A stretch of DNA of 64,000 nucleotides, from NCBI GenBank assembly GCA_963803275.1, contig CAWDLS010000014.1:91567-155566 (forward strand). Reading direction: 5' to 3'. This document shows positions 6,790 through 42,363 of the stretch, piece by piece; the first letter of the stretch is position 1, and the number at the start of each line of letters is the position of its first letter. A program made the translations under genes and the position numbers. The DNA is from an uncultured Gammaproteobacteria bacterium. Its GTDB lineage: Bacteria; Pseudomonadota; Gammaproteobacteria; UBA9214. Below the pieces are notes generated by a model that searched no databases, was not told the origin of the DNA, and worked only from the letters and a program-made list of their open reading frames with translations.

Positions 6790-6805
6790 GAAATCCCGGG
6801 ATTTC
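6790..6805. other. 16-bp perfect palindrome GAAATCCCGGGATTTC abutting the uvrD stop codon
   Basis: It is seen directly in the sequence. No U-tract follows, so it is not a classic terminator. Confidence 0.4.
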
Positions 6806-8985
6806 TACATGCCGACCGATTCAAGATTGGCGTAGGCCAGCACCAGCCACTTGGTCCCGGCACTGGAGAAGTTCACCTGCACGCGTGCGCTGCTGCCCTT
6901 GCCCTCGCAGTTCATGATCACGCCCTCGCCGAACCGGGCGTGACGCACGTGCTGGCCGAGGTGCAGCCCGCCGACTACGGACTCCTGCGGCATGGAGACG
7001 GCTGACAAGGTGGACGCGCCCGGCAGGCTGACGCCGGGGCGCGTGCGCACCTCGTCGATCAGCGCTTTCGGGACCTCGTCGATGAAGCGTGACGGCAGGC
7101 AATAGGTCTCCGAACCGAACACACGCCGGCGCTCGGCACAGGTCAGTACCAGCTGCCGGCGCGCCCGCGTGATGCCGACGTAGCAGAGGCGGCGTTCTTC
7201 TTCCAGCGCCCGGGTTCGTCCGCGGAGAGCTGGTTCGGAAACAGGCCTTCCTCCATAGCCGCACATGAACACCAGCGGAAACTCCAGGCCTTTGGCGGAA
7301 TGCAGCGTCATCAGCTGCACGCATGTTGCCGGCATCGGCCTGCCCCTCGCCGCCCTCCAGCGCGGCATGCGCCAGGAATTCCGGCACAGCGGGTCCATGC
7401 GCACTGTCGGTCATCGGGGACGAACTCGCGCGCGGCATTGACCAACTCCTGCAGATTCTCGTTGCCGTGCATCGCCCTTTCACCCTTCTCTTTCGCGAAG
7501 TGGTCGAGCAGACCGCTCGGGTCGATGACATGCTCGACCTGTTCACCGAGCGACAGGCTGCCGATCCCGTCTGCCAGCGCATCGATCGAGATTGAGGAAG
7601 CCGATGCACCGCATTGCCGGCTCGCGCCGGCAGCAGCATTCTCACTGGCCACGTTGCGGCGGCCTGCCACAGCGAGGTGTTGTAGCCCCGGGCCTGCTGG
7701 CGAACCGCGTCCATGGTACGGTCGCCGATGCCGCGTGGTGGATGATTGACCACGCGTTCGAACGAGGCGTCGTGATGCGGTTGGCCGTCAGGCGCAGGTA
7801 GGCCAGCGCATCCTTGATTTCGGCCGTTCGAAGAATCGCAGTCCGCCATACACGCGATAGGGGATGCCGCACTGCATCAGGCGTTCCTCCAACACGCGTG
7901 TCTGGGCGTTGGAGCGATAGAGGATGGCCACTTCGCTGCGCGCATTGCCCCTTGTCGACCAGGTCTCGATGCGATCCACCACAAAGCGCGCCTCATCGTG
8001 CTCGTTGTACGCCGAGTACAGCTGGATGGGTTCGCCCTCGTGGCCATCGGTCCACAGCTGCTTGCCCATGCGCGCCGTGTTGTTGTCGATCACGCGCATT
8101 GGCCGCCTTCAGTATCGTGCCGGTGGAGCGGTAGTTCTGCTCGAGCCGAACCACGCGAGTGTCGTGTGAAATCCTGCTGGAAGCGCAGGATGTTTTCCAC
8201 TCGCGCGCCGCGCCAGCCGTAGATCGACTGGTCGTCGTCGCCGACCACCATGATGCGCGCCGGTGCACCGGCCAGCATGCGCAGCCAGGCGTATTGGATC
8301 GCGTTGGTGTCCTGGAACTCGTCGACCAGGATATGCTGAAATCGATGGCGATAATGATCGAGCAGCTGTGGAATCTTCAGCCACAGCTCGTGCGAGCGCA
8401 GCAGCAGCTCGGCGAAGTCGACCAGCCCGGAGCGCTGGCACAGCTCCTCGTAGGCCTCGTAGATGTCCAGCTGGCGCTTCAGGATACGGATCGTTACGGT
8501 GCTCGATGTGCTGCGGGCGGCGGCCCTCGTCCTTGCGCTATTGATGAACCACTGCATTTGCCGGGGCGGCCAACGCGCCTCGTCGAGGTCCAGTGCGCCT
8601 TCAGGATGCGCTTGATCAGTCGCTGCTGATCGTGCGGAGTCCAGGATCTGGAAGCCCTCCGGCAGGCCCGCCTCCTGCCAGTGCGTGCGCAGCAGGCGAT
8701 GCGCGAGGCCGTGAAAGGTGCCGACCCACATCCCGCTGGCGGACATCTGCATCAACTGCTCGATGCGGCTGCGCATCTCGCCGGCCGCCTTGTTGGTAAA
8801 GGTCACGGCGAGCACGCAGTACGGTGAAGCCCCTCGACGTCGATCAGCCAGGCAATGCGATGCACGAGCACGCGGGTCTTGCCGCTGCCGGCGCCGGCCA
8901 GCACCAGCAGCGGTTCCTGGGTTGCGCAGACTGCCTCGCGCTGGGCGTCATTGAGCGATTCGATAATCCTGGAAACATCCATGGC
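6805..8985 (-). pseudogene. uvrD: DNA helicase II UvrD, interrupted by at least 6 frameshifts
   Basis: The N-terminus [20 protein letters not shown]...[21 protein letters not shown] at 8985 is near-identical to E. coli UvrD. Successive fragments (8090-8815, 7993-8268, 7788-8099, 7642-7872, 7311-7670, 6805-7404) are collinear with UvrD motifs ([72 protein letters not shown]) but lie in different frames. Confidence 0.85.
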
Positions 8986-9248
8986 AGGTCATTCTAGCAA
9001 TACGGGGGGTGATAATCAGGCCGGTCAACAGGCTGACTGCCGGCCAGGCGTGTCTATACGTGGCAAAATCCTATACACTGTCAAGTGATATCCGCCAAAC
9101 ATTATAAAAACCTTGGATAGGAAACCGGCACCACACGACGGATTTCCGGGTACCTGCCACCGCACAGGTCGGGCATGGCCACCCGGAAACAACTGCACTC
9201 CCGGCAATCCGGGCAGCGGTTGGAAAATACAAGCCGGTTGAGGTACTT

Positions 9249-9692
9249 ATGGGAATATTGTTGGTAGTGCTTGCGATCCTGCTGGTGATTGCCGGCAGCG
9301 CCTGGCTGATGTACAGGAAGCGCCCGGGGACCGCCCGGCAAAGACTCCGCTCATCGGGTTCCACCACCACGCCCGCCCGGCCCGGTGGTATCGACAAGCT
9401 GGAGGGCAGTGAGTTGTTCTGGGGCGTCAGGCTGGCCCAGGCCGGCTGCGAATCCTCGCAGGTCCTGCTGGGCAAGCACTTCACCTTCGACGAGGCGCCG
9501 GTGCTGCCCCTGGGAGACTGCAGTTCCGCGACCTGCACCTGCCAGTTTCAGGGTCTCAGGGAACGGCGCGACCGGACGCGGCGCACCCATGCCGACCGTC
9601 GTGAAGTGGTGCGCTTCGATGTCGACAATCCCAACCGCCGCTCGCGCATCAGCCGACGGCGCGGCGACAAGTGGGCCGACCATACCTATTGA
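9249..9692 (+). CDS. Hypothetical protein with an N-terminal transmembrane helix (147 aa)
   Basis: There is a gaggt RBS 5 nt upstream. The N-terminus is hydrophobic (GILLVVLAILLVIAGSAWLMY), followed by a Cys-containing basic C-terminal region. I recognise no family. Confidence 0.4.
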   Translation: MGILLVVLAILLVIAGSAWLMYRKRPGTARQRLRSSGSTTTPARPGGIDKLEGSELFWGVRLAQAGCESSQVLLGKHFTFDEAPVLPLGDCSSATCTCQFQGLRERRDRTRRTHADRREVVRFDVDNPNRRSRISRRRGDKWADHTY

Positions 9693-9703
9693 GTGCCCCG
9701 CGA

Positions 9704-9967
9704 TCAGGCGACTTCGGCCAGTATCTTCCTGTTTTTCGGGGAGTTGAGGTTGACGGTCTTCGGCTTGGAGCCTTTCAGGTAGGCCTCCAGCGTTACCGTC
9801 GGGATCTGGGCAAGATCAACCAGTGGATGCATGGTACATTTTTCGCAGGCAATCAGCTTGGGCGGCGCGCCGGCCGGTGCCTTGCCTACCGGACGTTCAC
9901 GCAGGTTCTTGCAGGTGGTGACACTCAGGTAGGCTTGTTGGGGAATGCAGTAGAACATTGAATCCAT
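9704..9967 (-). CDS. Small Cys-rich (zinc-ribbon-like) hypothetical protein (~88 aa)
   Basis: The ATG at 9967 is preceded by an AAGGAG Shine-Dalgarno. The cysteine pattern is C-x11-C...C-x2-C (CIPQQAYLSVTTC...CEKC). The longer listed ORF (to 10243) would overlap the glmS 3' end. Confidence 0.45.
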   Translation of the reverse strand: MDSMFYCIPQQAYLSVTTCKNLRERPVGKAPAGAPPKLIACEKCTMHPLVDLAQIPTVTLEAYLKGSKPKTVNLNSPKNRKILAEVA

Positions 9968-10118
9968 ATCCAAAACTAAACTCCTTTGGTCCCGCGGCAT
10001 CCGGTCACCCGGACATAGCAAAGTCGGATATGTTAACACAGCCGGGCTGCAATAGCACACCAGCGCATGAGATATCAATAACTTAGCGTTTACAGGGTAT
10101 TGCCCGCCGGCGTACGTC

Positions 10119-11954: not shown

Positions 11955-12056
11955 AGCTTGCTACCTTCCCTCGCCGGGGCCGTGACCGGATGTGGCTACC
12001 GGCCAGTTACCCGCCTGCCTTCGGCTTGCACTGTTACACGTTTTACAATTCACTTG

Positions 12057-13451: not shown

Positions 13452-13635
13452 TTGCGTGCCTGAAATATTGCACAGTCAACCTCGGGGACGCAAAGCAATT
13501 TATGTAACCGATGGCTGCCTGGAACAGTCCGCCGCCTGCCGCCGGGTGGCTCATGGTCGCAAGGTGGAGAAAAATAACGGGAAACATGGCCCTGTATCGG
13601 CCGGCCGGGTGATACGTTTATATGCGCATCCAGCG

Positions 13636-14543: not shown

Positions 14544-14569
14544 CTTATCTTACTCTTGTTTCGTGACAC

Positions 14570-21231: not shown

Positions 21232-21519
21232 CCTTTATCAGTTAGTTACGTGATACAGACTGGGAGATCGTGCGCGCAGAGGCGCCGCGCACCAAAGCCA
21301 GCCGGCCACGAGGCAGCCGGGGATTATAAGGACGGTCTATGGGAGGGGTCAATCAATTAAGGCATGGGGGGGTCGACCCGGCAGGCTGTTGAACAAGTCC
21401 AAGACAAGTGCAGGACAAGGTTAAAATCGGTGATAAAGCGCGGTGTACCCGCCACAACACGGGCATTTTGAGCCGGTTGTTGACGCCGTATCGTGCCGCA
21501 TGAGTGAGTTTCAAGCCTG

Positions 21520-22483
21520 CTAGTGGATATGTTCCAGGATCCCGTCGAGCTCGTCCAGGCTGTTGTAGCTGATCTCCAGCTTGCCCTTGCCGCCGCGTCC
21601 GGGGCGGATCAACACGCTGGCACCGAGCCGGTCCGACAGGCGGGTTTCCAGCTGACGGATGTCAGGATCCTCGCGCGGTGGCGGTGACTTGGCGCTGCGC
21701 GGCTGTTGCAGGTGCCTGACCAGCCCCTCGGTGGCGCGCACGCTGAGGCCACGTGCAGTCACCTGGCGCGCCGCCTCGACCTGGGCGGGGCCTGCGAGCG
21801 ACAGCAGCGCACGCGCATGCCCCATCTCCAGCTCGCCACGCTCGACCATGGCCTTGACGGCCACATCGAGATCGAGCAGACGCAACAGGTTGGACACCGC
21901 GGCACGGGATCGCCCAACGGCCTCGGCGGCCTGTTCGTGGGTAAGTTCGAATTCGTCGAATCAGGCGGTCGAGTGACGCGGCCTCTTCCATCGGGTTGAG
22001 GTTTTCACGCTGGATATTCTCGATCAGCGCGATGGCGATCGCGGCACGGTCTTCCACATCGCGCACGATCGCCGGGATTTCATGCAAGCCGGCCAGCTGG
22101 GCGGCACGCCAGCGCCGCTCGCCGGCGATGATTTCATACCCGGCATCGCCGAGCCGGCGCACCACGATCGGTTGCAGCACACCCTGGGCACTGATGGAAT
22201 CGGCGAGGTCCTGCAATGATTCCTTGTGCATATCGATGCGCGGCTGGTACTTGCCCCGCCGGATGATATCGACCGGCAGCTTGCACAGGGCGCCGTCGGC
22301 CGGCGGCGCAGAAGTGGGCTCGCGTGTCGCGTGCGGATCCGGTGTCACACGCACAGGCCATGGCCCGGCCGGCGCGCCGGGCTGACCGATCACCTCCGCC
22401 GGTGTTTCCGTCTCTGCAGGGCGGGCACCTGGACCCAGCAATGCATCCAGACCCCGTCCCAATCCGCGTTTTTTAACAGCCAT
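21520..22483 (-). pseudogene. parB: Chromosome partitioning protein ParB with one frameshift near 21930-21960
   Basis: The N-terminal ORF (22483-21662) carries ParB motifs (KRGLGRGLDALL, IIAGERRWRAA). The C-terminal ORF (21897-21520) carries the HTH and dimerisation region. Shifting frame by 1 nt at ...SLDRLI restores the conserved stretch FDEFELTHEQAAEAVGRSRAAVSNLLRLLDL. Confidence 0.85.
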
Positions 22484-22508: not shown

Positions 22509-23345
22509 TTAATAGTGCGCCGCATCGGAGGCGGCGGTTTCCGCCATTTCTTCTGCAACCGGCTCCGCCGTGACCGCCGGCGCATGGCGGCGCAGGTATT
22601 CACCGGCCAGCGCCAGGTAGGCCATGGCACCACGCGAACCCTTGTCATAGCGCAATACCGGCAAACCGTGACTGGGTGCCTCGGCCAGCCGCACGTTGCG
22701 CGGAATGATGGTGCGGTAGACCTTGTCACCGAAGTGTTGCTGCAATTGCGCGGATACCTCCGTCGCAAGCCGGTTACGCGCATCGAACATGGTGCGCAGC
22801 AGTCCCTCGATGCCCAGCTCGGGATTGACCGCCACGCGCACCTGTTCCACGGTATCGATTAGCGCAGACAGACCTTCCAGCGCGTAATACTCGCACTGGA
22901 TCGGTATCATCACACTGTGCGCGGCGGCCAGTGCATTGACCGTGAGCATGTTCAGCGACGGCGGACAATCGATCAGGATAACATCGTAATCGGCCAGGAT
23001 ATAACTGAGTGCTGCACGCAGGCGACGCTCGCGATCGTCCTTGCCCATCAATTCGACCTCGGCCGCGGTCAGGTCGGCATTGCCCGGCAGTATGTCGTAA
23101 CCGGCCGCGTCGGCGTGCACTATCGCACCGCGGATGTGGCTATGCCCGAGCAGGACATCATAGCCGGTGCGGCTGATCTCGTGCTTGTCGAGCCCGCTGC
23201 CCATGGTCGCATTGCCCTGGGCATCGAGATCGATCAGCAGCACACGGCGGCCGGTCTCCGACAGGGATGCGGCGAAGTTGACACTGGTCGTGGTCTTGCC
23301 AACACCGCCTTTCTGGTTGGTAACGGCGATTATCCTGCCCGTCAT
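22509..23345 (-). CDS. parA: Chromosome partitioning ATPase ParA (Soj)
   Basis: It has the deviant Walker A box (VTNQKGGVGKTTT). It is 278 aa and intact. Confidence 0.92.
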   Translation of the reverse strand: MTGRIIAVTNQKGGVGKTTTSVNFAASLSETGRRVLLIDLDAQGNATMGSGLDKHEISRTGYDVLLGHSHIRGAIVHADAAGYDILPGNADLTAAEVELMGKDDRERRLRAALSYILADYDVILIDCPPSLNMLTVNALAAAHSVMIPIQCEYYALEGLSALIDTVEQVRVAVNPELGIEGLLRTMFDARNRLATEVSAQLQQHFGDKVYRTIIPRNVRLAEAPSHGLPVLRYDKGSRGAMAYLALAGEYLRRHAPAVTAEPVAEEMAETAASDAAHY

Positions 23346-23357
23346 GTGGCTGCCTCC

Positions 23358-24040
23358 TCAACGTTGGCGGAAAGCTGCATGGCGACCACGTGGCGTTCGG
23401 CATCCAGCCCCGGCACCTTCAGTGCAATGACATCCGCGTGCACGCCGGTGGCTTCCAGACATTCGATTTCCGTCATCGGGTAAACGCCCTTCATCGCCAG
23501 CATGTGGCCGTGCGGGGTGCATAGCTGCGCGGCATGGCGATAGTACTTCTGGCAGATCGGAAAATGCGCGGCAGATCATGGTATCGAACAGCACTTCGGC
23601 CGGTAATCCTCGATGCGCGGGTTCACCAGTGTGACGTTGTCGAGGTTGAGTATGCCGAGCGTCTGCTGTACGAAGCGCAGCTTCTTGCTGCTGCTGTCGA
23701 GCAGCACGAATTCGCGTTCGGGACACGCGATGGCCAGCGGTATGCCGGGCAGTCCCGCGCCTGTGCCGATATCGATCACACGTTCGCCGTACAGGTGATC
23801 GACGATCGACAGGCTGTCGAGGATGTGGCGTGTAATGATGTCGGTTGGCTTGCGCACCGAGGTCAGGTTGTAGACCCGGTTCCAGTTCATCAGCTCGGTG
23901 ACATATTCCATCAACAGATCGTCACCGCCCAGACGCTCTTCCAGGCCCAGCTCCTGGATGCCGTCCTCGAGCAGCTCACCGGGATCAACGAAGCCGTTGT
24001 TACGTCCCTTGCGGTTGCGGTTGTAGAGTCCGGTATACAT
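23358..24040 (-). pseudogene. rsmG: 16S rRNA m7G527 methyltransferase RsmG (GidB), interrupted by at least 2 frameshifts. The 3' boundary is approximate.
   Basis: The N-terminal fragment carries WNRVYNLTSVRKP...HILDSL and the SAM motif IDIGTGAGLPGIPLAI. The downstream fragment carries FDTMICRAF in another frame. Confidence 0.7.
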
Positions 24041-24066
24041 GTCCTGTCAGTTGCGATTGGCGAATG

Positions 24067-25962
24067 CTATGCACGCTTGCGTAGCAGCCGGTTTTTCTTG
24101 ACGTGTATCAGCAGCAGCGATATGGCAGCCGGTGTGACGCCCGGGATGCGTGCTGCCTGGCCGATGGTCTGCGGTCTCGCATCCAGCAGTTTTTCACACA
24201 CCTCGCTGGACAGGCCACGTACCGCATTGTAATCGAATTCCAGCGGCAATGTTTGTTCCTGGTGGCGACGCTGGCGATCGATCTCGCCGGCTGACGATCC
24301 AGGTAGCCCGCGTACTTCGCCTGGATCTCGACCTGCTCGGCCACCGCCCCATCGGCTACCGGCGGTCCCAGCCTCTCGATGGCGGTCAGTGCATGGTAGC
24401 CCAGCTCCGGACGGCGCAGCAGTTCACAGCGCAAACTGCTCGCGCGCGAGTGGCTTGTCGAGCAGCGCCGCCAGCGCGTGCGGCCGGCATGGCTGTCCGG
24501 GCGGACCAGCAAGGCCGCGAGGCGCTGCTGTTCACGCTCGATGGCCGACCGCTTGATGCAGAAGGCCATCCAGCGCCGTTCGTCCACGAGACCCAGCCGG
24601 CGGCCCGTTTCCGTCAGGCGCAGGTCGGCGTTGTCCTGGCGCAGCGTCAGGCGGTATTCCGCGCGACTGGTGAACATGCGGTAGGGCTCGCTGGTGCCGC
24701 GGGTCACCAGGTCATCGATCAGCACGCCCATGTAGGCCTGCTCGCGCCCGGCGTCCAGGGCTCTTCGCCCTGCGCCTGGCGTGCGGCATTCAGGCCGGCA
24801 ATCAGTCCCTGCGCGGCAGCCTCCTCATAACCGGTGGTTCCGTTGATCTGACCGGCAAAAAACAGCCCGCCGATGACCCGGGTCTCCAGCGAATACAGCA
24901 GATCGCGCGGATCGAAGAAATCGTACTCGATGGCATAGCCGGGGCGGGTGATATGTGCGCGCTCGAAACCGGCGATGGAATGCACCAGTGCCAGTTGCAC
25001 GTCATAGGACAGGCTGGTGGAGATCCCGTTGGGATAGACCTCGTGGGTGTCCAGCCCCTCCGGCTCGATAAAGATCTGGTGCGAGGAGCGGTCGGCAAAG
25101 CGTACCACCTTGTCCTCGATAGATGGACAGTAGCGCGGTCCGACGCCCTCGATCGCGCCGCTGTAGAGCGGCGAATCACCGAGCCCGTCGCGAATGATGT
25201 CATGGGTACGGGCGTTGGTACGGGTGATGTGGCAACTGACCTGGCGCGGGTGATCTGCTGCGCTGCCCAGAAAGGACATCACCGGTACCGGCTCGTCACC
25301 GGGCTGTGCCTGCAGCAGGCGGTAATCGATGCTGCGCCCGTCGATGCGCGGGGGGGTACCGGTCTTCAGTCGCGCAACACGCAGCGGCAGTTCGCGCAGC
25401 GCGCTGCGCAGAGTGCATTGGCAGGTGGGTCGCCGGCGCGGCCGCCGGCATAGCTGGCCGGGCCGATATGGATACGTCCACCCAGGAAGGTCCCGACCGT
25501 CAACACCACGGAACGGGCATGGAAACGCAAGCCCATCGCGGTCACCACGCCGGTGACGCGCCCGCCGGCGACGATCAGGTCCTCTACCGCCTGCTGAAAC
25601 AGCTGCAGGCCGGGCTGGCCTTCCAGCGTCTGGCGCACGGCGTGCCGGTACAGCACGCGGTCGGCCTGGGCGCGCGTCGCCCTGACCGCATGACCCTTGC
25701 TGGCATTCAACACGCGAAACTGGATGCCGGCCTGATCGGTGACCTGCGCCATCAGCCCCCCCAGTGCGTCGATCTCGCGGACCAGGTGGCTTTTACCGAT
25801 GCCGCCGATCGCCGGGTTGCAGCTCATCTGGCCCAGTGTTTCCAGGTTATGCGTCAGCAACAGGGTCCGTGCGCCCAGCCGGGCCGCGGCCAGCGCGGCC
25901 TCGGTGCCGGCATGACCGCCGCCCACCACGATGACGTCATACTGCATCGGCCCTGAGCCCAC
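24067..25962 (-). pseudogene. mnmG: tRNA uridine-5-carboxymethylaminomethyl modification enzyme MnmG (GidA), interrupted by at least 3 frameshifts
   Basis: The N-terminus is [25 protein letters not shown], a FAD-binding motif. Middle fragments carry [15 protein letters not shown]. The C-terminal 60-aa ORF carries [23 protein letters not shown]. The total span is 632 codons, close to the ~630 aa expected. Confidence 0.85.
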
Positions 25963-26123
25963 GATGATGCCCCCGTAAAAGAAGCCGGAATTCTACGCCC
26001 CGGCCGGAAAACCTGGCAACGCAGGCCGGCCGTGAACGGCGGTTCGATTCCATCTCATAATAGCTATATATCGGAATATATTGTGCTAAAATATTTCGAA
26101 TTTCACTATATAGGGTAAATTGA

Positions 26124-26702
26124 ATGAGACTTCTTGAGCTCAGGGGTAGCGAGGGTGACGCCGATCCCAGGCGCGCCGCCCTGTTACACAAGGCAGACAG
26201 GAAGCCAGCAATTGACGCCCGAACCATCAACAGGCCGGCACCCGGAAAGGAACCTGCGGTGGACACCCGGGTCTTTCCGATCAACACACGCCCCCCCGAA
26301 ACACCGCTGCGCCGGCGGCCGTTCGACCTGGAACAGCTGCAGCGGCGCATCGAGGAACTGGAACGGCGCATACAGGAACGTGCGCGCAGCAGCGCTGTGT
26401 CTGCACAGGGCGGCAAGGAACTGGAACAGCTCAGACAGCGCGTCAAGTTGCTGGAACGGCGCATCGAAGGCGAATTGTGGTCGGCGCGGCAACGCGAACA
26501 CACCCTGCTTGAAATGCTGGCGCGCCCACCGATTCGGACCGTGGTCAAGGAATATTGCACACGCCTCCTGCGCAATGCCCCGCCGACCACCCTGCGCTGG
26601 CTGAAAGCCGCCGGCAAGGCGTGGTGGCAGGATGCCCAGCCATTGTGGTGGCCGCGCTTCGCCGCCCTCTGGCAGGAAGCACTGGCGCGCGCGCGCAGCT
26701 GA
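26124..26702 (+). CDS. Hypothetical coiled-coil protein (192 aa)
   Basis: It contains an ELERRIQER / LLERRIEGEL heptad-like region. I recognise no family and the start is uncertain. Confidence 0.35.
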   Translation: MRLLELRGSEGDADPRRAALLHKADRKPAIDARTINRPAPGKEPAVDTRVFPINTRPPETPLRRRPFDLEQLQRRIEELERRIQERARSSAVSAQGGKELEQLRQRVKLLERRIEGELWSARQREHTLLEMLARPPIRTVVKEYCTRLLRNAPPTTLRWLKAAGKAWWQDAQPLWWPRFAALWQEALARARS

Positions 26703-26726
26703 ACGCCCTGTCGCGGGAAACCGCGA

Positions 26727-27395
26727 TTACTTGAGTGCGACCGTGCGCAACCCGGCCCACAGCAGCGCCAGCTGCTGGCGGTACATGGCACCGATCGCGG
26801 CCGGGTTGGCATGCTGCATGGCCAGTGGCACGCCGTAAAATACCGACACCAGGGCGACCATGGCTGCCGCGATCGCTGTGTTGCCCGGCAGTTCTCCCTG
26901 GTCGATCGCGGCCTGCAACGATTGCCTTAGCAATCCCTCCAGACTGTCATCCGGCAACTGTTCGATACCCTCGAGATCGGAGAACGCAATCATGCGCTCG
27001 GCCGGTGTGATCTCCAAACCCGGATTGCGCACGCGTGCACGCGCCTCGTGGGCAATGATTTCACCCATCAGCCCCGGCTTCTTCTGGATCTGGATCGCGG
27101 TGTAGCGGAACAGGGCGTCGATCACCGCGATCCCCTTGTGCTGCTGCGCGGCCTGCCGGCCGTACCAGTTCAGTTCCAGCGTCCACAGCCGGTCCAGATA
27201 GATGATCAGATCTTCCTTGCGGGGGAAGTAATTGAAGAAGGTCGCCTCGGAAATCTGTACCCGCTCGCACAGGGCCTTGACCGACAGCGTCTCGAACGAG
27301 GCCGCATCGAGATGCCGGGTGGCTGCCTCTGCCAGGGCGAGGCGGGTACGGGCAAACTTGCGTTCACGCAATGTGGGGCGCGGGCTGTCAGACAT
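26727..27395 (-). CDS. TetR family transcriptional regulator
   Basis: The N-terminal HTH (TRLALAEAATRHLDAASFETLSVKALCERVQISEATFFNYFPRKEDL) is typical of TetR. It is 222 aa. Confidence 0.85.
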   Translation of the reverse strand: MSDSPRPTLRERKFARTRLALAEAATRHLDAASFETLSVKALCERVQISEATFFNYFPRKEDLIIYLDRLWTLELNWYGRQAAQQHKGIAVIDALFRYTAIQIQKKPGLMGEIIAHEARARVRNPGLEITPAERMIAFSDLEGIEQLPDDSLEGLLRQSLQAAIDQGELPGNTAIAAAMVALVSVFYGVPLAMQHANPAAIGAMYRQQLALLWAGLRTVALK

Positions 27396-27424
27396 AATAT
27401 TAAAGCGGACTCCAATTATATATG

Positions 27425-27771: not shown

Positions 27772-29131
27772 TCACTTGCCGATGCAGAAGCTGCTGAAGA
27801 TCATGCCCAGCAGGTCGTCGCTGCTGACCTCGCCGGTGATCTCACCCAGAGCCTGCTGCCCCGCACGCAGCTCCTCGGCGAGCAGTTCGCCGGCGTGCTG
27901 TTGCTCGAGTTGCCGGACGCCAGCGAGGACATGGGCGTGTGCGCGCTCCAGTGCATCGAGGTGCCGGCGGCGTGCGCTGAATTCGCCCTCGCACTCTCCG
28001 GTAAACCCGGCCACCTGCTTGAGATGGCTGCGCAGGGCATCCATACCGGCACCGGTGAGCGCGGAAAGGGCGACGCCCGGCTGTCCGTCCACCGCTCAGG
28101 GCCGGGCGAACGGCCGCTCAGGTCCACCTTGTTGTAGATGCGGGTATGCGGTACGCCGGGCGGCAGGCTGTCGAGGATCCCGGCATCAGCGGGGCAAAAA
28201 CCCGCCTGGTCATCGATGACCAGCAGCACGTGATCGGCCTGTGCCATGGCCTGCCGGGCGCGCTGCATCCCGGCCCGTTCGACCGGATCGGCACTGTCGT
28301 GCAGGCCGGCCGTGTCGATGATGTGCAGCGGCATGCCATCGAGCTGGATGTGCTCGCGCAAGCACATCGCGGGTGGTGCCGGGTATTGCGGTGACGATGG
28401 CGGCCTCGCGGCCCGGCAGGGTATTCATCAGGCTGGACTTGCCGGCATTGGGACGCCCGGCGATCACCAGGGTCATGCCATCGCGCAGCAACCGCGCCCT
28501 GGCGGGCACGGGCAAGCAGCGTCGTGAAAGATCGTCGCGCCAGTTGCTGCAGCCCCTGCTGCAGGCCGCTCGTCCGACGAGAAAATCGATCTCCTCTTCG
28601 GGAAAATCGATGGCCGCCTCGACATAGCATGCGCAGCGCGTCAGCGTTCGCGGTCAGATCATGTACCTGCCGGGAAAACTCGCCCTGCAGGGAGCGCACC
28701 GCGGCGCGCGCGGCCTGCGCGGTGCCGCTGCCGATCAGGTCGGCGATCGCCTCGGCCTGGGCAAGGTCGAGCTTGTCGTTGAGAAAGGCGCGCTCGGAAA
28801 ATTCGCCCGGACGCGCCGGGCGCGCGCCGAGCGCCAGCACACGCGCCAGCAGCAGGTCGAGCACCACCGGACCGCCGTGGCCGTGCAGCTCCAGCACATG
28901 TTCGCCGGTGAAGGAGGCCGGCGCCGGGAAATACAGCGCGAGGCCGGAGTCGATCAGCGTGCCGTCAGCGGCCCGGAAATCCCGCCGTCTCGCCTGGCGC
29001 GCCGGTGGCAGCGTCCCCAGCAGGCGGCACGCGATGTCCGGCACGTCCGGTCCGGAAATGCGCACGATGCCAATGCCGCCCTGTCCGGGCGGCGTGGCGA
29101 TGGCGGCGATGGTGTCGGTGTTCGGCGTCAC
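27772..29131 (-). pseudogene. mnmE: tRNA modification GTPase MnmE (TrmE), interrupted by at least 3 frameshifts
   Basis: The N-terminus is [28 protein letters not shown]-domain motifs (IIDTAGL, VLLVIDD) lie in a second frame. The C-terminus ...[11 protein letters not shown] (MnmE C-terminal CxGK) lies in a third frame. Confidence 0.85.
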
Positions 29132-29159
29132 GATATAATCGAGCGCCGGCGGCTGAACG

Positions 29160-30822
29160 TTATTTTTTTGCGCCGCGCTCGATGCGCCGCGTGATCACGT
29201 ATTGCTGGGCGATGGACAGGGTGTTGTTGACCACCCAGTACAGCACCAGCCCGGAAGGGAAGAAGGCGAAGAACACCGTGAACACCACCGGCAGTGCCAT
29301 CATGACCTTGGCCTGGATCGGGTCCATGGGCGCCGGATTGAGCTTCTGCTGGATGAGCATGGTCGCGCCCATCAGCAGCGGCAGGATGTAGAACGGGTCC
29401 GGTGACGACAGGTCGTGTCATCCAGCAGCATGAACGGCGCCTGGCGCATCTCGACGCTTTCCAGCAGCACCCAGTAGAGCGCGATGAAGACCGGCATCTG
29501 CACCACGATCGGCAGGCAGCCGCCGAGCGGGTTGATCTTCTCTTTCTTGTAAAGCTCCATCATCGCCTGGTTGAGCTTCTGCCGGTCGTCGCTGTAGCGC
29601 TCCTTGAGCGCCTGCAGGCGCGGCGCCAGCTTGCGCATATTGGCCATGGAGCGGTAGCTGGTTTCCGACAGCTTGTAGAACGCCAGCTTGATCAGCATCG
29701 TGAGCAGCACGATGGACCAGCCCCAGTTGCCGATCAGCTTGTGAATGGTCTTCAGCAGCCAGAACAGCGGCTGCGCGAGCACCGTCAGCCGGCCGTAGTC
29801 GACCGTCAGCTCGAGACCCGGTGGCGACCTTCTTCATTTGGTCCTGCAGTTTCGGGCCCGACATACAGGCGCGTGCTGAACACCGTATGGTCGCCGGCGG
29901 CAACGTCGCGTTGCGGTGAGATCAGCCCGATGACATAACGCTCGATTGCTGAGCGTCTTGGTGTAGTAGCGCTCGGCTCACTGCGTTCGGGTATCAGTGC
30001 GGCAAGGAAATAATGTTGCATCATGGCGGCCCAGCCGTCGGTGACGTTGCGGTCGAGCGTCCTCTTCTGCATGTCCTCGAACGTGATTTTCTCGTACTTG
30101 TCTTCCGGACTGTAGAGAACGCCGCCCGTATAGGTGCGAATGAATGTGGTCTTGGCGGGCTTCGCCGCAGCGGGTGCGTTGCAGCTGCCGGTATTGTCGC
30201 CCGTGTCCATTCATGGTCACTGTTGTTTGTTACCTCGTAATCGAGATCGATCACGTGACTGCCGCGATGGAAGATGTAGAGTTTGGTTACCACGACACCG
30301 TCCTGACTGCGCCACACCAGTGGCACCTGCAGGGTGTCCGCGGAATCGGCCATGCGATAGTGTGTCTGCTCCGCGCCGTACACCAGCGTGGTGGGTTGCC
30401 TCCTCGCCCGCGACGCTACGCAGACCCGACTGCATGATGAACAGGTTGGGCAGCGTGTCATTCATCAGCCGGAAGGGGGGGGAGTCGGGCTTGTTTGTCG
30501 CCTTGTAGTCGCGCAGGTCCACCTGGCGCAGGTCACCGCCCGTGGTATCGATGTCGACCCTGTACAGGTCGGTTTCCACATGGATCTGCTGGCCGGTCTC
30601 CAGCAGGCCGCTCTCTGCCGGCGTGACGTCCGCCGCGCTGACTGCATTCGGCGCACCCGGGATATCACCGTCACTTGCGGTGGATTCGGCGGCGGCCTGC
30701 TCCACCTGCTGTGCAGTTTGGGCAGGTGCGGGCGCCGGTCCGTAGTCCTTCATCCAGGCCTGCCACAGCAGCAGCGCCACGAACGACAGTGCGACAAACA
30801 GCACCATGCGCTGATTATCCAT
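29160..30822 (-). pseudogene. yidC: Membrane protein insertase YidC, in 4 fragments with at least 3 frameshifts
   Basis: The N-terminal fragment is [23 protein letters not shown]. The central fragments carry [38 protein letters not shown]. The C-terminus is [43 protein letters not shown]. Confidence 0.85.
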
Positions 30823-31414: not shown

Positions 31415-31549
31415 TCAGACTGACAGCCGGGCCCGACCCTTCGCACGACGGGCATTAATCACGCGCCGGCCATTCTTGGTGCTCATGCGCGCACGAAACC
31501 CGTGTGTGCGCTTGCGTCTCAGGTTGCTGGGTTGATAGGTTCTTTTCAT
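31415..31549 (-). CDS. rpmH: 50S ribosomal protein L34
   Basis: [44 protein letters not shown] is 44 aa and canonical L34. It was not in the ORF track because it is under 60 aa. Confidence 0.92.
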
Positions 31550-31676
31550 GGCACGTCACGTCCGGAATAGATTTCAGAGACCACACCCTGGCAAGCGGCG
31601 TGAAAGGGCGCAAAGCGTACTGTTCAGCCGGGTTGAAATGTCAACTGTCCGGCGATGCAGGCGACTGGCGACAGGG

Positions 31677-31752: not shown

Positions 31753-33094
31753 GTGGAAGTTACGCTCTGGCAGAAGTGTCTGGTTCGACTCGAACATGAA
31801 CTGCCGGAGCAACAATTCAATACCTGGATACGACCCCTGCATGCTATTGAAAACGGCGAGAATCTGCGCCTGCTCGCACCCAACCAGTTCGTTCTCGACT
31901 GGGTCAGGAAACACCACTTCGATACCATCTCACAGACACTGCACGAAATCGGCCCGGGTAGCGAAACCCGCCTGCAGCTCGACATCGGCAGCAGCAAGAA
32001 GATCACCCGAATCAACCCGGTGACGCCCGTCGTACCGGCTGCCGTGGAGCCGACAGCCGCCGCAGTCCAGCACAAGAGCAACCTGAACCCGGAGTTCACC
32101 TTCGACGACCTTCGTGGGAGGCAAGTCGAACCAGCTCGCCCGCGCCGCGTCCATCCAGGTCGGGGAAAATCCCGGGGGCGCGTACAATCCGCTGTTCATC
32201 TACGGCGGTGTCGGGCTGGGTAAGACCCATCTCATGCATGCCGTCGGCAACATGATCCTGAACAACAGGCCGAACGCCCGGGTGGTCTATCTGCACTCCG
32301 AACGTTTCGTCGCCGACATGGTGCAGGCGCTGCAGCACAACGCCATCAACGAGTTCAAGCACTTTTACCGCAACGTCGACGCCCTGCTCATCGACGATAT
32401 TCAGTTCTTCGCCAGGAAGGAACGCTCTCAGGAAGAATTCTTCCACACATTCAATGCCTTGCTTGAAGGCCAGCAACAGGTCATCCTGACCTGTGACCGC
32501 TATCCGAAGGAGGTCGACGGCCTGGAAGACCGCCTCAAGTCACGCTTTGGCTGGGGACTCACGGCCGCCATCGAGCCGGCCGAGCTCGAGACGCGGGTTG
32601 CGATCCTCATGAGCAAGGCCAGCCAGGTCAGCATCGAGCTGCCATCAGACGTGGCCTTCTTCATCGCCAAGCGCATCCAGTCCAATATCCGCGAGCTGGA
32701 GGGCGCCTTGCGACGGGTCATCGCCAGCGCCCGTTTCACCGGGCAACCCATCAACCTGGAACTCACCCGGGAGGCGTTGCGTGACCTGCTTGCATTGCAG
32801 GACAAGCTGGTGACGATCAGCAATATCCAGAAGGTCGTCGTCGAGTACTACAAAATCAGGATCGCGGACCTGTCGTCGGCACGCCGCAGTCGCACCATCA
32901 CGCGACCGCGCCAGATTGCCATGGCGCTGGCCAAGGACCTGACCACGCACAGTCTGCCGGAAATCGGCGAGGCCTTTGGCGGCCGCGATCATACGACGGT
33001 ACTGCACGCCTGCCGCAAGGTGCAGGAATTGCGTGCCAGCGACAATCGTATCAACGAGGATTACAACAACCTGTTGAGAACCCTGACAGCATAA
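31753..33094 (+). pseudogene. dnaA: Chromosomal replication initiator DnaA with a GTG start and a single 1-nt insertion near 32105-32112
   Basis: The N-terminal ORF has the DnaA N-domain. The second ORF carries [10 protein letters not shown]...[22 protein letters not shown] (AAA+ Walker A) and a C-terminal DNA-binding domain. Reading gacgac-c-ttcgtg without one c gives the conserved [11 protein letters not shown]. Confidence 0.9.
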
Positions 33095-34641: not shown

Positions 34642-35775
34642 TTGACGAACGAGCAGCTCCTGTCTGCACATGGCGATCGGTTACCCGAACTGTATCGCGG
34701 GCTGCAATCCCTAGAGATTATCGACTTCAGGAACATCCAGACTGCGGATCTGCAGTTTTCAGCCGGCCTGAACCTGATCGATGGAGAAAACGCCTCCGGC
34801 AAGACCAGCCTGCTGGAAGCGATCCATACCCTCGGCCGGGTACGTTCGTTTCGTACCCATTCTGTGCAGCAGACGATTCGTTACGGGCAGGCGGCCTTTC
34901 GGCTGGTCGGAAGGATTGCCAGTGCAGACGGGCACGCGATCCCGATAGGAATCGAACGGAGTGCCGACACGCTGAACGTACGCCTGGCAGGCGAGCCGGT
35001 ACGACGCCTGTCCGATCTCGCCGGTTACTTCCCGGTACAGATACTCAGCAGCGATACATCGACCCTGTTCACCGGCGGTCCGCGCTACCGTCGCCAGGTG
35101 CTGGACTGGGCGCTGTTTCACGTGGAACAGGGCTATCGTGATAACTGGCAGCGTTACGCCCGGATACTGAAGCAGAGAAATGCCGCGCTCCGCGGTCATG
35201 CCAGATCGGCACTGATTTCAGCATGGGATGGCGAGCTCGTCGAGGAAGCCGGTGCCATCGACCGTCTGCGACGCGACTACCTCGCCCGGTTTTCGGGATT
35301 ACTGTCCGAAGAATTGCAACACCTGCTGCCGGAAAGTGAACTGGAGGTGCGATATATTCCCGGCTGGCCGGCCGGTCGCACCCTGACCGAATCCCTGGCG
35401 GGCACCCTGGACAAGGATCGCAGTCGCGGCTACACGCACTACGGTGTGCACCGGTCTGATTTCAGATTGATGTTCGATGGTCGGGATATCACGGCGCATT
35501 GTTCACGCGGGCAACAGAAGGCCATCATGGTGGGGTTCATGCTGGCACAGGTCCGTTTGCAGCAGGCGTGTGGATGCCCGGCAGGGGCGTTTTTACTGGA
35601 TGACCTGAGCAGTGAACTCGATCGATCAAATCAGCAACGCGTGCTGCAGGCCTTGCGTGATCTCCATGCACAGGTCTTCATTACGGCCATCGAGGGAGAT
35701 CGCATCGACGCCGCCGGATGGCGGGAGATCAAGCAGTTTCACGTGGAACATGGCGTGATACAGGAAGTGTTATAA
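34642..35775 (+). CDS. recF: DNA replication and repair protein RecF
   Basis: The Walker A box [14 protein letters not shown] is present, with ABC-ATPase-like motifs downstream. It is 377 aa. The start is about 20 aa longer than E. coli RecF, so it is uncertain. Confidence 0.88.
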
Positions 35776-35801
35776 TGCCGCGCTTACATAAGGGAGCCGC
35801 T

Positions 35802-38227
<2,426 letters not shown>

Positions 38228-38500
38228 GGCCTACCGGCTTACCGTTGCACAGTGATGCAAGGGCTTGAACCAGGCCAAATTGAATAAGTGTAAAGTTATA
38301 AAATTTGTAACATGCAGTATTAAAAGATTATTTTATTTGCGCAAAGACTATTTATGTTGTTAACTATATATTTCACCTAAAATAAACAGTTAGACAAACA
38401 TAAATACAATAACCCTATTCACAGGCTTCACCCGGTATGCAGCAGGCTCTACGGGCTGTTCCACGCCATTCCGGTCCTGCCATCCATCGGGGCCGCGAGG
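38228..38500. other. Very AT-rich convergent intergenic region between gyrB and plsC
   Basis: GC is about 25-30% (ttataaaatttgtaacatgcagtattaaaagattattttatttgc...). There is no GC-rich hairpin. Confidence 0.6.
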
Positions 38501-39259
38501 TCAGGCCTGTGTCTTCAATGTGGTGATTTCCGCCATACGGTCCTCGATCCAGGTGGCGGCTTCATCCAGCAATTGCTGGGCCGATTTGCCGCTGCTCTCG
38601 ATAGGCTCGCCGATGCGGACCTGGATGACGCCGGGGTGCTTGATGAAACTGCGCCGCGGCCAGTACTCGCCGGCGTTGTGGGCAACCGGTACGATCGGGT
38701 AGCCGGTTTGTTCCGCAAGTATTGCGCCTCCAATACGGTAATGCCCCTTCTGGCCCGGGGGTATGCGGGTTCCTTCGGGAAAGATGACGATCCAGTCGCC
38801 TTCATCCAGTCGCGCCTTGCCCTGTGTGACCAGTTGCCTGATTGCTGCACGGCCACTGCCACGACGGATGGCAATGCATTTCATCAGGGCCAGTCCCCAG
38901 CCAAAAAAGGGTATCCACATCAACTCTCGTTTGGCAACCCAGACCTGTATGGGAAAGATTTGCTGCAGCGCGATGGTCTCCCAGGTCGACTGGTGCTTGG
39001 CAAACACGATGGCGGCGCCGGTCGGGATGTTCCCGGAGCCGACGACCTCATGGGTAAGGTGGCAGGTCACCTTCAGCCACCACAGCATGAAATGCACCCA
39101 GGTTTGCACCAGCGCCCAGCGTGTGGATAACGGGAACGGGAAGGTGAACAGCAGCAACACGGCGTAGATCACGACAGAGACCGGGAACACGACCCAGAAT
39201 GCAAGCGAGCGCAACCACAGGACCAGGGATGTGCCGTTGGATGTGCTGTCTGTGGCCAT
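38501..39259 (-). CDS. plsC: 1-acyl-sn-glycerol-3-phosphate acyltransferase (lysophospholipid acyltransferase)
   Basis: The HX4D-type motif region (AKHQSTWETI) and FPEGTR motif are present. It is 252 aa. Confidence 0.85.
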   Translation of the reverse strand: MATDSTSNGTSLVLWLRSLAFWVVFPVSVVIYAVLLLFTFPFPLSTRWALVQTWVHFMLWWLKVTCHLTHEVVGSGNIPTGAAIVFAKHQSTWETIALQQIFPIQVWVAKRELMWIPFFGWGLALMKCIAIRRGSGRAAIRQLVTQGKARLDEGDWIVIFPEGTRIPPGQKGHYRIGGAILAEQTGYPIVPVAHNAGEYWPRRSFIKHPGVIQVRIGEPIESSGKSAQQLLDEAATWIEDRMAEITTLKTQA

Positions 39260-39265
39260 GGCAGT

Positions 39266-39814
39266 TCAGGGATGCGCGTGACCGAGCAAGCTCTCCACCG
39301 CGGAATAAAGATCGCCGTAGACCGGCACGCCGGGATCCAGCGCCGGCATGCCTGCGGTACCGAAACCCTTGCCGGTCTTCACCAGTATGGGCCGGGCACC
39401 GGCGGCCCGGGCCGCCCTGATATCGTTCAGTGAGTCACCGATAGCCGGCACATCGGTGAGCTTGATGCGCAGGCGGGAGGCGATGTCCAGTAACAGGCCT
39501 GGCCTTGGCTTGCGGCAAGTGCAGTCGTCCTGTGGTGCATGCGGACAGAAGAACACCGCGTCAATCACACCGCCTGATTCGACGATGCGTCGCCGCATGG
39601 TCTCGTTGACGCGTGCCAGGTCGTCGAGGTCGAGGCGTCCGCTGGCAATGGCCGGCTGGTTCATGGCGATGACCACGTGCCAGCCGGCCCGATGCAGGCG
39701 GGCAATGGCTTCCAGGCTGCCGCGAATCGGCTTCCAGTCGGATGGCGAGGCGATGCAGTCATCCACGTCCTCGTTGATGACGCCGTCACGGTCGAGGATT
39801 ACGAGCTGCATCAC
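39266..39814 (-). CDS. gmhB: D,D-heptose 1,7-bisphosphate phosphatase-like HAD hydrolase
   Basis: The N-terminus is LVILDRDGVIN (a DxD HAD motif) and it has the CxC..C zinc motif FCPHAPQDDCTCRKP typical of the GmhB/HisB-N family. Confidence 0.8.
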   Translation of the reverse strand: MMQLVILDRDGVINEDVDDCIASPSDWKPIRGSLEAIARLHRAGWHVVIAMNQPAIASGRLDLDDLARVNETMRRRIVESGGVIDAVFFCPHAPQDDCTCRKPRPGLLLDIASRLRIKLTDVPAIGDSLNDIRAARAAGARPILVKTGKGFGTAGMPALDPGVPVYGDLYSAVESLLGHAHP

Positions 39815-40145
39815 GTGTCCCTGAACTCCGAAACACGGATGCGTCCGTTGATCATGCGCGACTCGCGTTTGCCGAGCTTTTCAAGCTTCTCCCAGAAGGC
39901 ACCGGCCAGGTCAAAATCCGCAGCGATCGCGGTGCCAATCAGCAAAATGAACAGGTCGGCGCATTCCTCCGCAAGCTTGCCGGTGTCCTTGCCCTTGGTG
40001 ACGCAGGCGGAAATCTCGCCCAGTTCCTCGGTCATCAGGGCAACGCGGTAAGCCAGTTCCTCGCCGCCGGTATTCCTGAAATCGTGCTTGTCATGGAATG
40101 CCTGTACGGCAGCCAGCATGCTTCTGTAGGAGTCGGTGTCAGACA
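39811..40145 (-). CDS. MazG-like nucleotide pyrophosphohydrolase domain protein (~111 aa; the ORF track extends it to 40233)
   Basis: EELAYRVALMTEELGEISACVTKGK...ECADLFILLI matches the MazG/NTP-PPase EExxE motifs. The probable start is the ATG at 40145 (MSDTDSYRSM). The stop overlaps the gmhB start. Confidence 0.6.
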
Positions 40146-40286
40146 TCGCTAGGTACACTCCTGAAATATCTTCCTTATTGACATGGGATGAACCCGTCTG
40201 CAAGCGGTGAGCCGGCCCTCCCAAGACTGTCACCCGGCCTGTCAGCTTCTAATCGCGATGTGCCCGTGCGGTTGATGTTCGCAACC

Positions 40287-42363
40287 TCAGGGTTGCAGCA
40301 GCGAGATATCGGCTACCTGTAAAAACAGTTCCGACAGTGTGTTCAGCAGGGCCAGGCGGTTATCACGCAGTGCCGGATCCTCGACCATCACCATGACGTC
40401 ATCGAAGAAGCGGTCGACCGGCGCCTGCAGTGCCGCCAGTCCGCACAGGGCGGTCGCGTAGTCGCGCGCCTCGTACAGCGGCTTGACCAGAGCGGTCTGA
40501 TCAGTGAGCGCGGCGGCCAGCGCCAGCTCGGCAGGTTCCGTGAGGAGATCCTGGCGGTAGACTTGCGGAATCGCTGTCTCGCACTTGCGCAGGATGTTTC
40601 GAATGCGCTTGTTGGCGGCGGCCAGGCTGGCGGCCTCCGGCAATCCGTGAAAGGTCTTTACGGCCTGGATGCGGTAGTCGAAATCCAGCGGTCGTGACGG
40701 TCGTCGTGCCAGGACGGCGTCGAACACGAGGGTGTCACAGCCGGCGTCTGAATACCAGCTGCGCAGGCGTTCCATCATGAAGGTGTACAGGTCGTTGCCG
40801 ATGGTGCGGGCCTTGAGTGTCTCGGGAAAACTGCCTGCCGCCTGATCGATGAGCGTATGCAGGTCGAGGTCGAGCTGTTTTTCGATCAGGATGCGCATCA
40901 CGCCGAGCGCGGCGCGGCGCAGGCCGAACGGATCCCTGTCGCCGCTCGGTGGCTGGCCGATGGCGAAGATGCCGACCAGTGTGTCGAGGCGTTCCGCGAT
41001 GGCCAGGGCCTGGCCTGTGGATGTGGCGGGTAATCCGTCGCCGGCATGGCGCGGCTGATACTGCTCGTCCAATGCTGTCGCAATTGCTGCGTCCTCACCG
41101 TCATGCAGGGCATAGTAGCGGCCCATGGTGCCCTGCAGCTCCGGGAACTCGAATACCATGCTGGTGACCAGGTCGCACTTGCACAAGGCGGCCGCGCGTC
41201 GCGCCTGTTCGACATCGAATCCCAGGGTGCCGGCGATATGTGTCGCCAGTCGCAGCCATGCGCCGCTGCCTGTCGCCCAGCGAGCCGAGCTGTTGCTGGA
41301 AGGTCACGCTGTCAAGCTGGGCTGCGCGGCTGGCCAGCGATCGCTTGCGATCCTGTGTCCAGAAAAATGCCGCATCCTCCAGGCGCGCACGGATGACACG
41401 CTCGTTGCCGGCCTTGACCTGGTCGGGGTCCTTGCTGGCGATATTGGCAACGGTGATGAAATAGGGCAGCAGTTTGTCGTCCGGTCCGGTAACCGGGAAA
41501 AACTTCTGGTGGTCCTGCATGCTGGAAATCAGTACCTCGGCGGGGACGTCGAGAAAGCGCCGGTCAAATTCACCGCTGATGGCGACCGGCCATTCCACCA
41601 GCGCGGTCACCTCGTCGAGCAGCTCCGCGTCGATGCGTGCGACACCGCCCAGTGCTGCTCCGGCCTCAGTCACCTGCGCGAGGATGCCATCCCGTCGCCT
41701 GTCCATATCGGCCATGACCATGCCGGTTTGCTCCAGTGTCTCGAGGTAGGCGGCAGGAGCCTTGACGGCGATCTCTTCGTTGTGGTGGAAACGGTGTCCG
41801 CGCGTGAAGCGGTTGCCGGTCATGCCAAGGATACTGTCTGTCACCGGCTCGTTGCCCAGCATCAGCAGTACCCAGTGAACCGGCCGGACGAATTCGAGGT
41901 CCGCATCACCCCAGCGCATGCGTCGTGCCACCGGTATGGCACGCAGCGCCTTTTCAACCAGCTCTGCAAGCAGTTCACCGGTCGGCCTGCCGGCCTCGGC
42001 CACAGTCCAGACCAGCCATGCGCCCTTGTCGGTTTCCAGCCGCTCCAGGTCGCCGACACCGACACCGCAGGAGCGCGCAAAACCCTCGGCCGGTTTGGTC
42101 GGTGTGCCATCGGCATCAAAGGCGGCCGCCAGCGCGGGACCGCGCCGGGTGATGGTACGGTCCGGCTGCTGCAGTGCCACGTCGCGAACCAGCACCGCCA
42201 GCCGGCGTGGCGTGGCGAAGGCCCGGCTGGCGCCGTGCCGAAGCTGGTATTCATCGAGCAGTCTGTCGATCGCGGCATGCAGGGCGTCGCGCATGTGCCG
42301 CAGGGATTTCGGCGGCAGTTCCTCGGTGCCGATTTCCAGCAGCAGGTCGCGTGTCGCCGTCAT
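40287..42363 (-). pseudogene. glyS: Glycine--tRNA ligase beta subunit with one frameshift near 41100-41190
   Basis: The N-terminal fragment [21 protein letters not shown] is the canonical GlyS start. The C-terminal 299-aa fragment has the anticodon-binding region. The two ORFs overlap in different frames. Confidence 0.88.

Follow-up and report, generated by a model that had tools for sequence, protein, structure and literature searches.

Do the frameshifts that interrupt nine housekeeping genes of an uncultured gammaproteobacterium record the loss of these genes, or were they introduced into the sequence during its assembly? The question arises from a 64,000-nucleotide (nt) stretch of a contig of GTDB lineage UBA9214 (CAWDLS010000014.1, positions 91,567 to 155,566; hereafter the window), in which uvrD, parB, rsmG, mnmG, mnmE, yidC, dnaA, gyrB and glyS each fall into collinear fragments. 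A model that saw only the letters and open reading frames (ORFs) of the window (hereafter the sequence-only reading) attributed the fragments to technical insertions and deletions (indels) and not to decay. Our comparison with related genomes supports that attribution: conspecific sequences from three datasets are intact, the substitutions show purifying selection, the indel spectrum is unlike a natural one, and essential genes are among those hit. We give a probability of about 0.87 to the reading that the frameshifts would be errors of the consensus, restricted to those tracts of a metagenome assembly in which strains vary, and not biological gene loss. In the real organism, all nine genes are almost certainly intact.

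We searched for close relatives by an exact-protein look-up with the intact DnaN of the window, which returned a 921,483-bp contig (ENA ERZ25039539, contig_18114) and two short Logan contigs. Contig_18114 is conspecific with the window, and four overlapping loci on it span the window entirely; the Logan contigs that we compared (four loci) came from ERR11718635 and ERR11594398. Window positions 4564-64000 aligned to contig_18114 in a single piece, with 99.19% identity, 388 mismatches and 81 indel events, counted in the window as 58 insertions and 23 deletions; there were no indels relative to contig_18114 in positions 1-4564. In contig_18114 each of the nine genes is one uninterrupted ORF whose Pfam domains are those expected, and the encoded proteins are UvrD (723 amino acids), ParB (320), GidB (232), GidA (625), MnmE (450), YidC (546), DnaA (446), GyrB (806) and GlyS (691). 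The split of all nine genes in the window is thus borne out, and the comparison with a closely related genome that the sequence-only reading had proposed yields an intact copy of each.

Wherever the Logan contigs from ERR11718635 and ERR11594398 cover a gyrB substitution or indel specific to the window, they side with contig_18114; one of them also matches contig_18114 at 100% identity along 2,477 nt that include the 3' 1 kb of uvrD. Since these independent contigs agree, the intact version is not the product of frameshift correction by one pipeline. More distantly, GyrB, MnmE and YidC were uninterrupted in 50-51 further relatives, and none of the shifts was present in any homologue, whether in the strain with a 99.95% identical backbone or in the approximately 50 relatives. 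The intact strain recurs nearly unchanged in three datasets, and the window strain was found in none of those. The relatives that we found are largely from Nanopore-only assemblies, made with metaFlye and Medaka from Danish soils and sediments (PMC12313526).

Alignment to contig_18114 placed 69 one-base indels within the nine genes: 28 in uvrD, 11 each in mnmE and yidC, seven each in mnmG and gyrB, two in rsmG, and one each in parB, dnaA and glyS. When these were reversed (insertions deleted and deletions filled), every one of the nine genes gave a full-length translation, with 94.2-100% identity to the intact protein. The shift counts of the sequence-only reading, most of them given as lower bounds, held, and several of them proved low (at least 6 for uvrD, at least 3 for mnmG, mnmE and yidC, and at least 5 for gyrB); those for parB, rsmG, dnaA and glyS match ours. 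Its junction coordinates generally fell within about 15 nt of a real indel, except for an estimate at 8200 in uvrD that lies about 35 nt from the nearest one.

The indels are distributed very unevenly among the genes. The most heavily affected is uvrD (6805-8982, minus strand), in which a single base has been inserted at 17 sites and deleted at 11, all between 7208 and 8828. On the same strand, yidC (29160-30807) and mnmE (27772-29131) carry nine insertions and two deletions each, at 29416-30386 and 28102-28646 respectively, and mnmG, also known as gidA (24067-25947, minus strand), carries five insertions and two deletions (24291, 24430, 24474, 24477, 24747, 25400 and 25410). In gyrB (35802-38227, plus strand) there are six insertions and one deletion (36002, 36231, 36277, 36445, 36558, 36726 and 37125). 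In rsmG, or gidB (23342-24040, minus strand), a T is inserted at 23547 and an A is missing at 23598, so that about 17 codons are out of frame. Finally, three genes are broken by a single inserted base: parB (21520-22483, minus strand) by a C at 21957, glyS (40287-42363, minus strand) by a C at 41251, and dnaA (31753-33094, plus strand) by a G at 32107, the corrected DnaA protein being otherwise 100% identical to its intact homologue.

Internal stop codons had been described as absent except for those created by the shifts, and this holds with one exception. Codon 343 of mnmE has an in-frame nonsense substitution (Cys343, TGC to TGA, at window position 28096), 6 nt from a one-base deletion; a complex error of the consensus probably accounts for it.

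The indels are not scattered over the window; they are nested within tracts of substitutions. We found three dense tracts of 1.6-2.6 kb each, with 3.5-8% divergence from contig_18114, located at 7165-8893 in uvrD (135 substitutions and 28 small indels), at 27850-30460 in mnmE and yidC (92 substitutions and 23 small indels), and at 35834-37414 in gyrB (106 substitutions, 90 of them synonymous, and 7 small indels). Of the 388 substitutions, 333 fall in these tracts, as do 58 of 77 small indels (75%), although the tracts make up 5.9 kb of the 59.4 kb aligned (10%). A weaker tract at 23396-25921, covering rsmG and mnmG, has 19 substitutions and nine indels. The remaining backbone is approximately 99.95% identical between the window and contig_18114, most kilobases holding 0-2 mismatches (about 0.3-0.6 mismatch per kb), with five small indels across about 50 kb. 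The density of errors is thus about 1 per 100 nt in the tracts against about 1 per 10 kb in the backbone, a difference of roughly 100-fold. In the tracts of uvrD and gyrB the substitutions are evenly spread (4-12 in each 100 nt), so that each tract looks like one contiguous foreign allele.

This co-location of errors with dense allelic variation is what a collapsed-strain artefact would be expected to leave, and the sharp bounds of the tracts and their mostly synonymous differences, in a near-identical backbone, have the form of homologous recombination. The broken segments had been taken for stretches of low quality or low coverage. They are indeed bad; this description is incomplete, since they coincide with the 3.5-8% divergent alleles. 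No frameshift indel was found in glmS, glmU, the atp operon, parA, dnaN, recF or the genes at 42-64 kb, which had all been listed as intact.

The substitutions within the tracts have the properties of real variation. Third codon positions account for 86 of 106 substitutions in gyrB, 99 of 135 in uvrD, 34 of 55 in yidC and 24 of 38 in mnmE, and Nei-Gojobori ratios of non-synonymous to synonymous change (dN/dS) are 0.05 for gyrB, 0.07 for mnmG, 0.15 for uvrD, 0.22 for mnmE and 0.27 for yidC. The nonsense substitution in mnmE is the only one seen, versus about eight expected if the same base changes were placed randomly. Relaxed selection on the interrupted genes, visible as dN/dS near 1 and as nonsense substitutions, was thus not observed, the picture being partly ambiguous for uvrD alone.

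We also asked whether outgroups share the state of the window or that of the intact strain at the differing sites. At the nucleotide level the two states are shared 48 versus 51 times in gyrB, 27 versus 27 in yidC and 19 versus 10 in mnmE (window versus intact); at the amino-acid level, among 50-51 homologues, the counts are 7 and 7 in gyrB, 10 and 2 in mnmE, and 15 and 11 in yidC. Random errors would almost never match outgroups, and neutral decay is not biased towards synonymous change, so the tracts derive from a functional copy in a sister lineage. We conclude that the substitutions in gyrB, mnmE and yidC are real alleles under purifying selection; the codon-position bias and the symmetry with respect to outgroups led us to reject random sequencing error as their source in these three genes, and to keep it in part for uvrD. 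A third lineage, represented by a 7.6-kb contig of the Joint Genome Institute (JGI) collection (P0124 and P0126), resembles the intact strain more closely at yidC and mnmE.

The exception is uvrD, whose intact homologue matches the Pfam domains UvrD-helicase and UvrD_C. In comparison with 39 homologues, the residue of the intact strain is the common one at 41 of 42 sites of amino-acid difference, and the window residue is absent from all homologues at 24 sites, several of which are invariant. Polarity against three outgroups, 86-87% identical, is strongly one-sided for non-synonymous codons (48 on the intact side versus 2 on the window side) and less so for synonymous codons (49 versus 26). 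Misalignment around indels can explain a minority of these odd replacements at most, since only 9 of the 46 non-synonymous mismatches have an indel within 3 nt.

uvrD is most simply explained by a real divergent allele that differs at roughly 60 synonymous sites, and on which some 45-60 random substitution errors and the 28 indels are superimposed. If errors do overlie a real allele in this way, uvrD would be the worst-quality stretch of the contig. An allele that evolved under relaxed constraint is possible as an alternative.

The spectrum of the indels is technical-looking, and unlike that of natural frameshift mutation. Out of 78 small indels, 77 are exactly 1 nt long, and insertions outnumber deletions by about 3:1 (57 versus 20). 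The inserted base differs from both of its neighbours in 43 of the 57 insertions, and one of 80 homopolymers of at least 5 nt is affected, namely the G-run at 21366. Homopolymer error and natural slippage were both rejected as sources on these two counts; in particular, the indels are not concentrated in homopolymer runs, as Nanopore-type homopolymer error would have them. One sequence context is over-represented among the insertion sites, which span 7208-41251: C was inserted after AG nine times versus 1.4 expected, a count beyond the 99th percentile of maxima under the null, often yielding CAGC. This bias could be a systematic error of basecalling or consensus, or could be related to methylation.

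Natural frameshift mutations in bacteria arise mostly by slippage at repeats, and decaying bacterial genomes show a deletion bias. Since neither applies here, the indels are hard to square with natural mutation.

Coding constraint leaves no trace in the placement of the indels, the same one-base events being found in spacers as well as in essential genes. Non-coding DNA holds eight of the small indels. One is an extra G at 21366-21372, in the spacer between parB and atpI (a run of seven G instead of six). Another, the insertion of ATAA at 29135-29138, lies in the 28-nt spacer between yidC and mnmE, at the position expected for the mnmE ribosome-binding site, and could be either real variation or error. 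Five one-base insertions fall within 60 nt (31563-31623) in the non-coding stretch from rpmH (31415-31549, intact) to dnaA, and an isolated G insertion at 56346, between the gene for iPGM and that for an ArsR-type regulator, breaks no gene. In the whole of 42-64 kb, this intergenic insertion is accompanied only by a 15-nt in-frame deletion relative to contig_18114 (49228-49236) in a gene of the DUF4124 family. The deletion is the sole multi-base indel in coding sequence, and looks like natural strain variation.

How could such a pattern arise? The backbone of the contig is essentially identical to a strain seen intact in other datasets, and we propose that a few tracts of 1.6-2.6 kb (uvrD, mnmE-yidC and gyrB, with rsmG-mnmG as a weaker case) carry the 3.5-8% diverged allele of a sister lineage. 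The divergent alleles may have been imported into the window strain by recombination, or may represent the variant path of another strain in the sample. Within the tracts, the consensus step would have met thin or conflicting read support and produced one-base indels at a rate of about 0.5-2%, plus substitution errors of a few percent in the uvrD tract; where all reads agreed, the error rate would have stayed at about 1 per 10 kb. Candidate steps are a collapsed pile-up of two strains, a variant path of a minor strain that could not be polished, and long-read filling of a strain-variable gap. It is probable that strain heterogeneity, or low strain-specific coverage, caused the consensus to fail, and the indels would be absent from the DNA molecules themselves.

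The principle has precedent in long-read assembly. Where a long-read consensus collapses alleles that differ at many sites, reads are misaligned, and the resulting indel errors truncate ORFs (PMC8445201); indels in long-read consensus sequences become frameshifts at gene calling (PMC9262707); and strain collapse is routine in long-read metagenome assemblers (PMC8302730).

Several observations weigh against this explanation. The absence of the indels from the molecules would follow from a comparison of assembled sequences, not from reads. The rate of indels does not scale with divergence: there are seven indels for 12 substitutions in mnmG, and seven for 106 in gyrB. A burst of ten insertions over 150 nt in mnmE (28496-28646) stands amid few substitutions. 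The spectrum, rich in insertions and away from homopolymers, also differs from that of the usual Nanopore consensus errors (PMC9262707). If insertions arose by writing both alleles of a single-nucleotide polymorphism (SNP) side by side, many should be readable as synonymous variants; 25 of 50 coding insertions were, versus 18.4 expected (P ~0.03), a result only weakly positive, and we did not adopt allele doubling as an explanation.

The divergent allele, finally, was not found intact anywhere that we searched, by protein searches and two scans of JGI DNA. An exact 25-mer from the gyrB tract of the window had no match in JGI metagenome contigs, and a degenerate 32-mer found only a relative at 75% identity in JGI DNA. 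Searching with the indel-corrected UvrD protein gave the protein of the intact strain as the best match (94%), followed by one at 87%. For GyrB, YidC, MnmE and MnmG, the proteins listed in the same clusters were limited to that of the intact strain, the fragments of the window and the third, intact-strain-like JGI lineage. Exact look-ups of ParA, YidD, RnpA and a GyrB fragment for the window strain likewise returned no match.

An alternative that shares the artefactual nature of the indels, and differs only over the origin of the alleles, supposes that the tracts are foreign to the genome: reads of a co-occurring related species would have been recruited at conserved genes, overwriting the consensus and generating the indels. 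The tracts do lie in widely conserved genes (uvrD, mnmG, mnmE, yidC and gyrB), their alleles are real sister-lineage sequences, and no strain with these alleles turned up elsewhere. Recruitment by conservation should nevertheless have touched neighbours that are equally or more conserved, and atpA, atpD, dnaN, recF, glmS and glnA have 0-3 substitutions each; the divergence of the uvrD and gyrB tracts is moreover uniform and not a patchwork. We regard recruited reads as an unlikely source of the alleles. Because more conserved neighbours such as atpA, atpD, dnaN and glmS are untouched, the evidence favours true strain-specific tracts over recruited alleles.

Less likely again is plain sequencing error, of the low-coverage or homopolymer type, that would be independent of strain variation; this is the sequence-only reading in its simplest form. 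It would account readily for the five isolated indels in non-divergent regions (the G-run at 21366, and 21957, 32107, 41251 and 56346), and the insertion burst in mnmE with few substitutions nearby also speaks for it; yet generic dips in coverage would not place 75% of the indels in the 10% of the sequence that is 3.5-8% divergent, mostly at synonymous sites, nor would homopolymer-type error spare 79 of 80 long homopolymers.

Under genuine pseudogenisation, the nine genes would be in the course of loss by frameshift, either from the organism as a whole or from a redundant duplicate of its origin region. In its favour are the 28 indels of uvrD together with many window-specific replacements at sites invariant among homologues, the one true nonsense substitution in mnmE, and the fact that the fragments stand as such in public records. 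It is nonetheless very improbable in our view. gyrB, dnaA, yidC and glyS are essential, single-copy genes. The flanks are approximately 99.95% identical to those of the intact strain, which leaves no time for decay unless already decayed alleles were imported, and the constraint measured in the tracts (dN/dS 0.05-0.27, and one nonsense substitution where about eight were expected) is that of working genes. The replacements in gyrB, mnmE and yidC look no less ancestral than the residues of the intact allele. Indels of 1 nt, biased to insertion and away from homopolymers, do not show the deletion bias, slippage and range of sizes of natural events, and non-coding spacers are equally dense in them. 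A duplicated replicon segment is further opposed by the synteny of all 64 kb with the single origin region of the 921-kb contig.

A narrower version keeps the frameshifts of the essential genes as artefacts and takes the uvrD lesions alone as real. Helicase II (UvrD) acts in mismatch repair and suppresses recombination, so that a lineage without it could be both a mutator and a hyper-recombinator. If true, this would explain why several imports from a relative diverged by 5-8% lie near the origin; we give it very little credence all the same. Recoding, with programmed ribosomal frameshifting or a similar process restoring the frame, has the collinearity of the fragments in its favour and nothing further. 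It would have to act at 69 shifts in nine genes, in both directions and without a common slippery context, while the same events occur in non-coding DNA; the shifts are conserved neither in the strain with the 99.95% identical backbone nor in 50 relatives, and their absence from every homologue effectively refutes recoding, to which we assign a negligible chance.

The G+C content of the window is about 60%, and its gene content is the classical origin-proximal set of a gammaproteobacterium, in the order glgP, uvrD, glmS, glmU, the atp operon, parB, parA, rsmG, mnmG, two extra genes, mnmE, yidC, yidD, rnpA, rpmH, dnaA, dnaN, recF and gyrB, and farther on glyS and glyQ. The two extra genes (~26100-27400), which encode a 192-amino-acid protein without a Pfam match and a TetR-family regulator, break the usual order of the origin region, and both are identical in contig_18114. 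In the genome collection, the nearest species-level relatives are metagenome-assembled genomes of uncultured Gammaproteobacteria, with DnaN identities of 76-83%; more distant DnaN relatives include Thiohalobacter and Thiogranum. The residual biology is ordinary: a soil or sediment population of a gammaproteobacterium, with short divergent alleles at origin-proximal housekeeping genes.

The practical consequences lie in annotation. The sequence-only reading had predicted that these genes would be mis-called, and fragment proteins are already in public protein sets. P0122 is a 377-amino-acid GyrB fragment, the exact translation of window positions 37094-38227 (plus strand), and P0128 is a 193-amino-acid MnmG fragment, the exact translation of 25366-25947 (minus strand). 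Each has an out-of-frame end, and both derive from a public 322,112-bp metagenome-assembled contig (NCBI and ENA), which is thus already feeding truncated "proteins" into databases. For this genome, distortion would affect pseudogene counts, completeness estimates and marker phylogenies based on gyrB, dnaA, uvrD or mnmE. In short tracts where strains differ, the consensus of a metagenome contig can be about 100 times richer in errors than elsewhere. This suggests a read-free diagnostic: when one-base frameshifts and synonymous SNPs cluster at the same place, in comparison with a near-identical genome, they point to an artefact of strain heterogeneity and not to decay. For indel-induced frameshifts in long-read assemblies, the IDEEL test, proovframe and Homopolish are available (PMC9262707; bioRxiv 10.1101/2021.08.23.457338).

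Among known systems, the window resembles the pseudogene-rich, decaying genomes of recently host-restricted symbionts and pathogens, in which many genes are frameshifted and yet recognisable and collinear. Those genomes show relaxed selection, nonsense mutations, deletion bias and indels of varied size, and they keep their essential genes; none of this holds in the window. The likeness to frameshifts from long-read indels is closer, since one-base consensus indels there also split genes into collinear fragments, and truncated proteins are annotated. In the classical Nanopore case, however, errors are concentrated in homopolymers and spread genome-wide, whereas here one of 80 homopolymers is affected, insertions prevail by about 3:1, and errors are about 100 times denser in short tracts.

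Recombination mosaicism provides a counterpart for the alleles themselves, with three sharply bounded, mostly synonymous tracts in a backbone of approximately 99.95% identity, and functional-looking alleles of gyrB, mnmE and yidC. Real imports, in contrast, would carry no frameshifts in essential genes, and the linkage of tract and backbone is here presumed from the contig. Collapsed haplotypes, as described in Trypanosoma brucei (PMC8445201) and for strains in metagenomes (PMC8302730), offer a parallel for the errors. Those systems were a diploid eukaryote or mock mixtures of strains, with reads in hand, whereas the two haplotypes of the window would be deduced from its alignment to a conspecific. 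In both settings the indel errors sit at regions truly rich in SNPs, and in the published cases the apparent frameshifts vanish once the haplotypes are separated (PMC8445201; PMC8302730).

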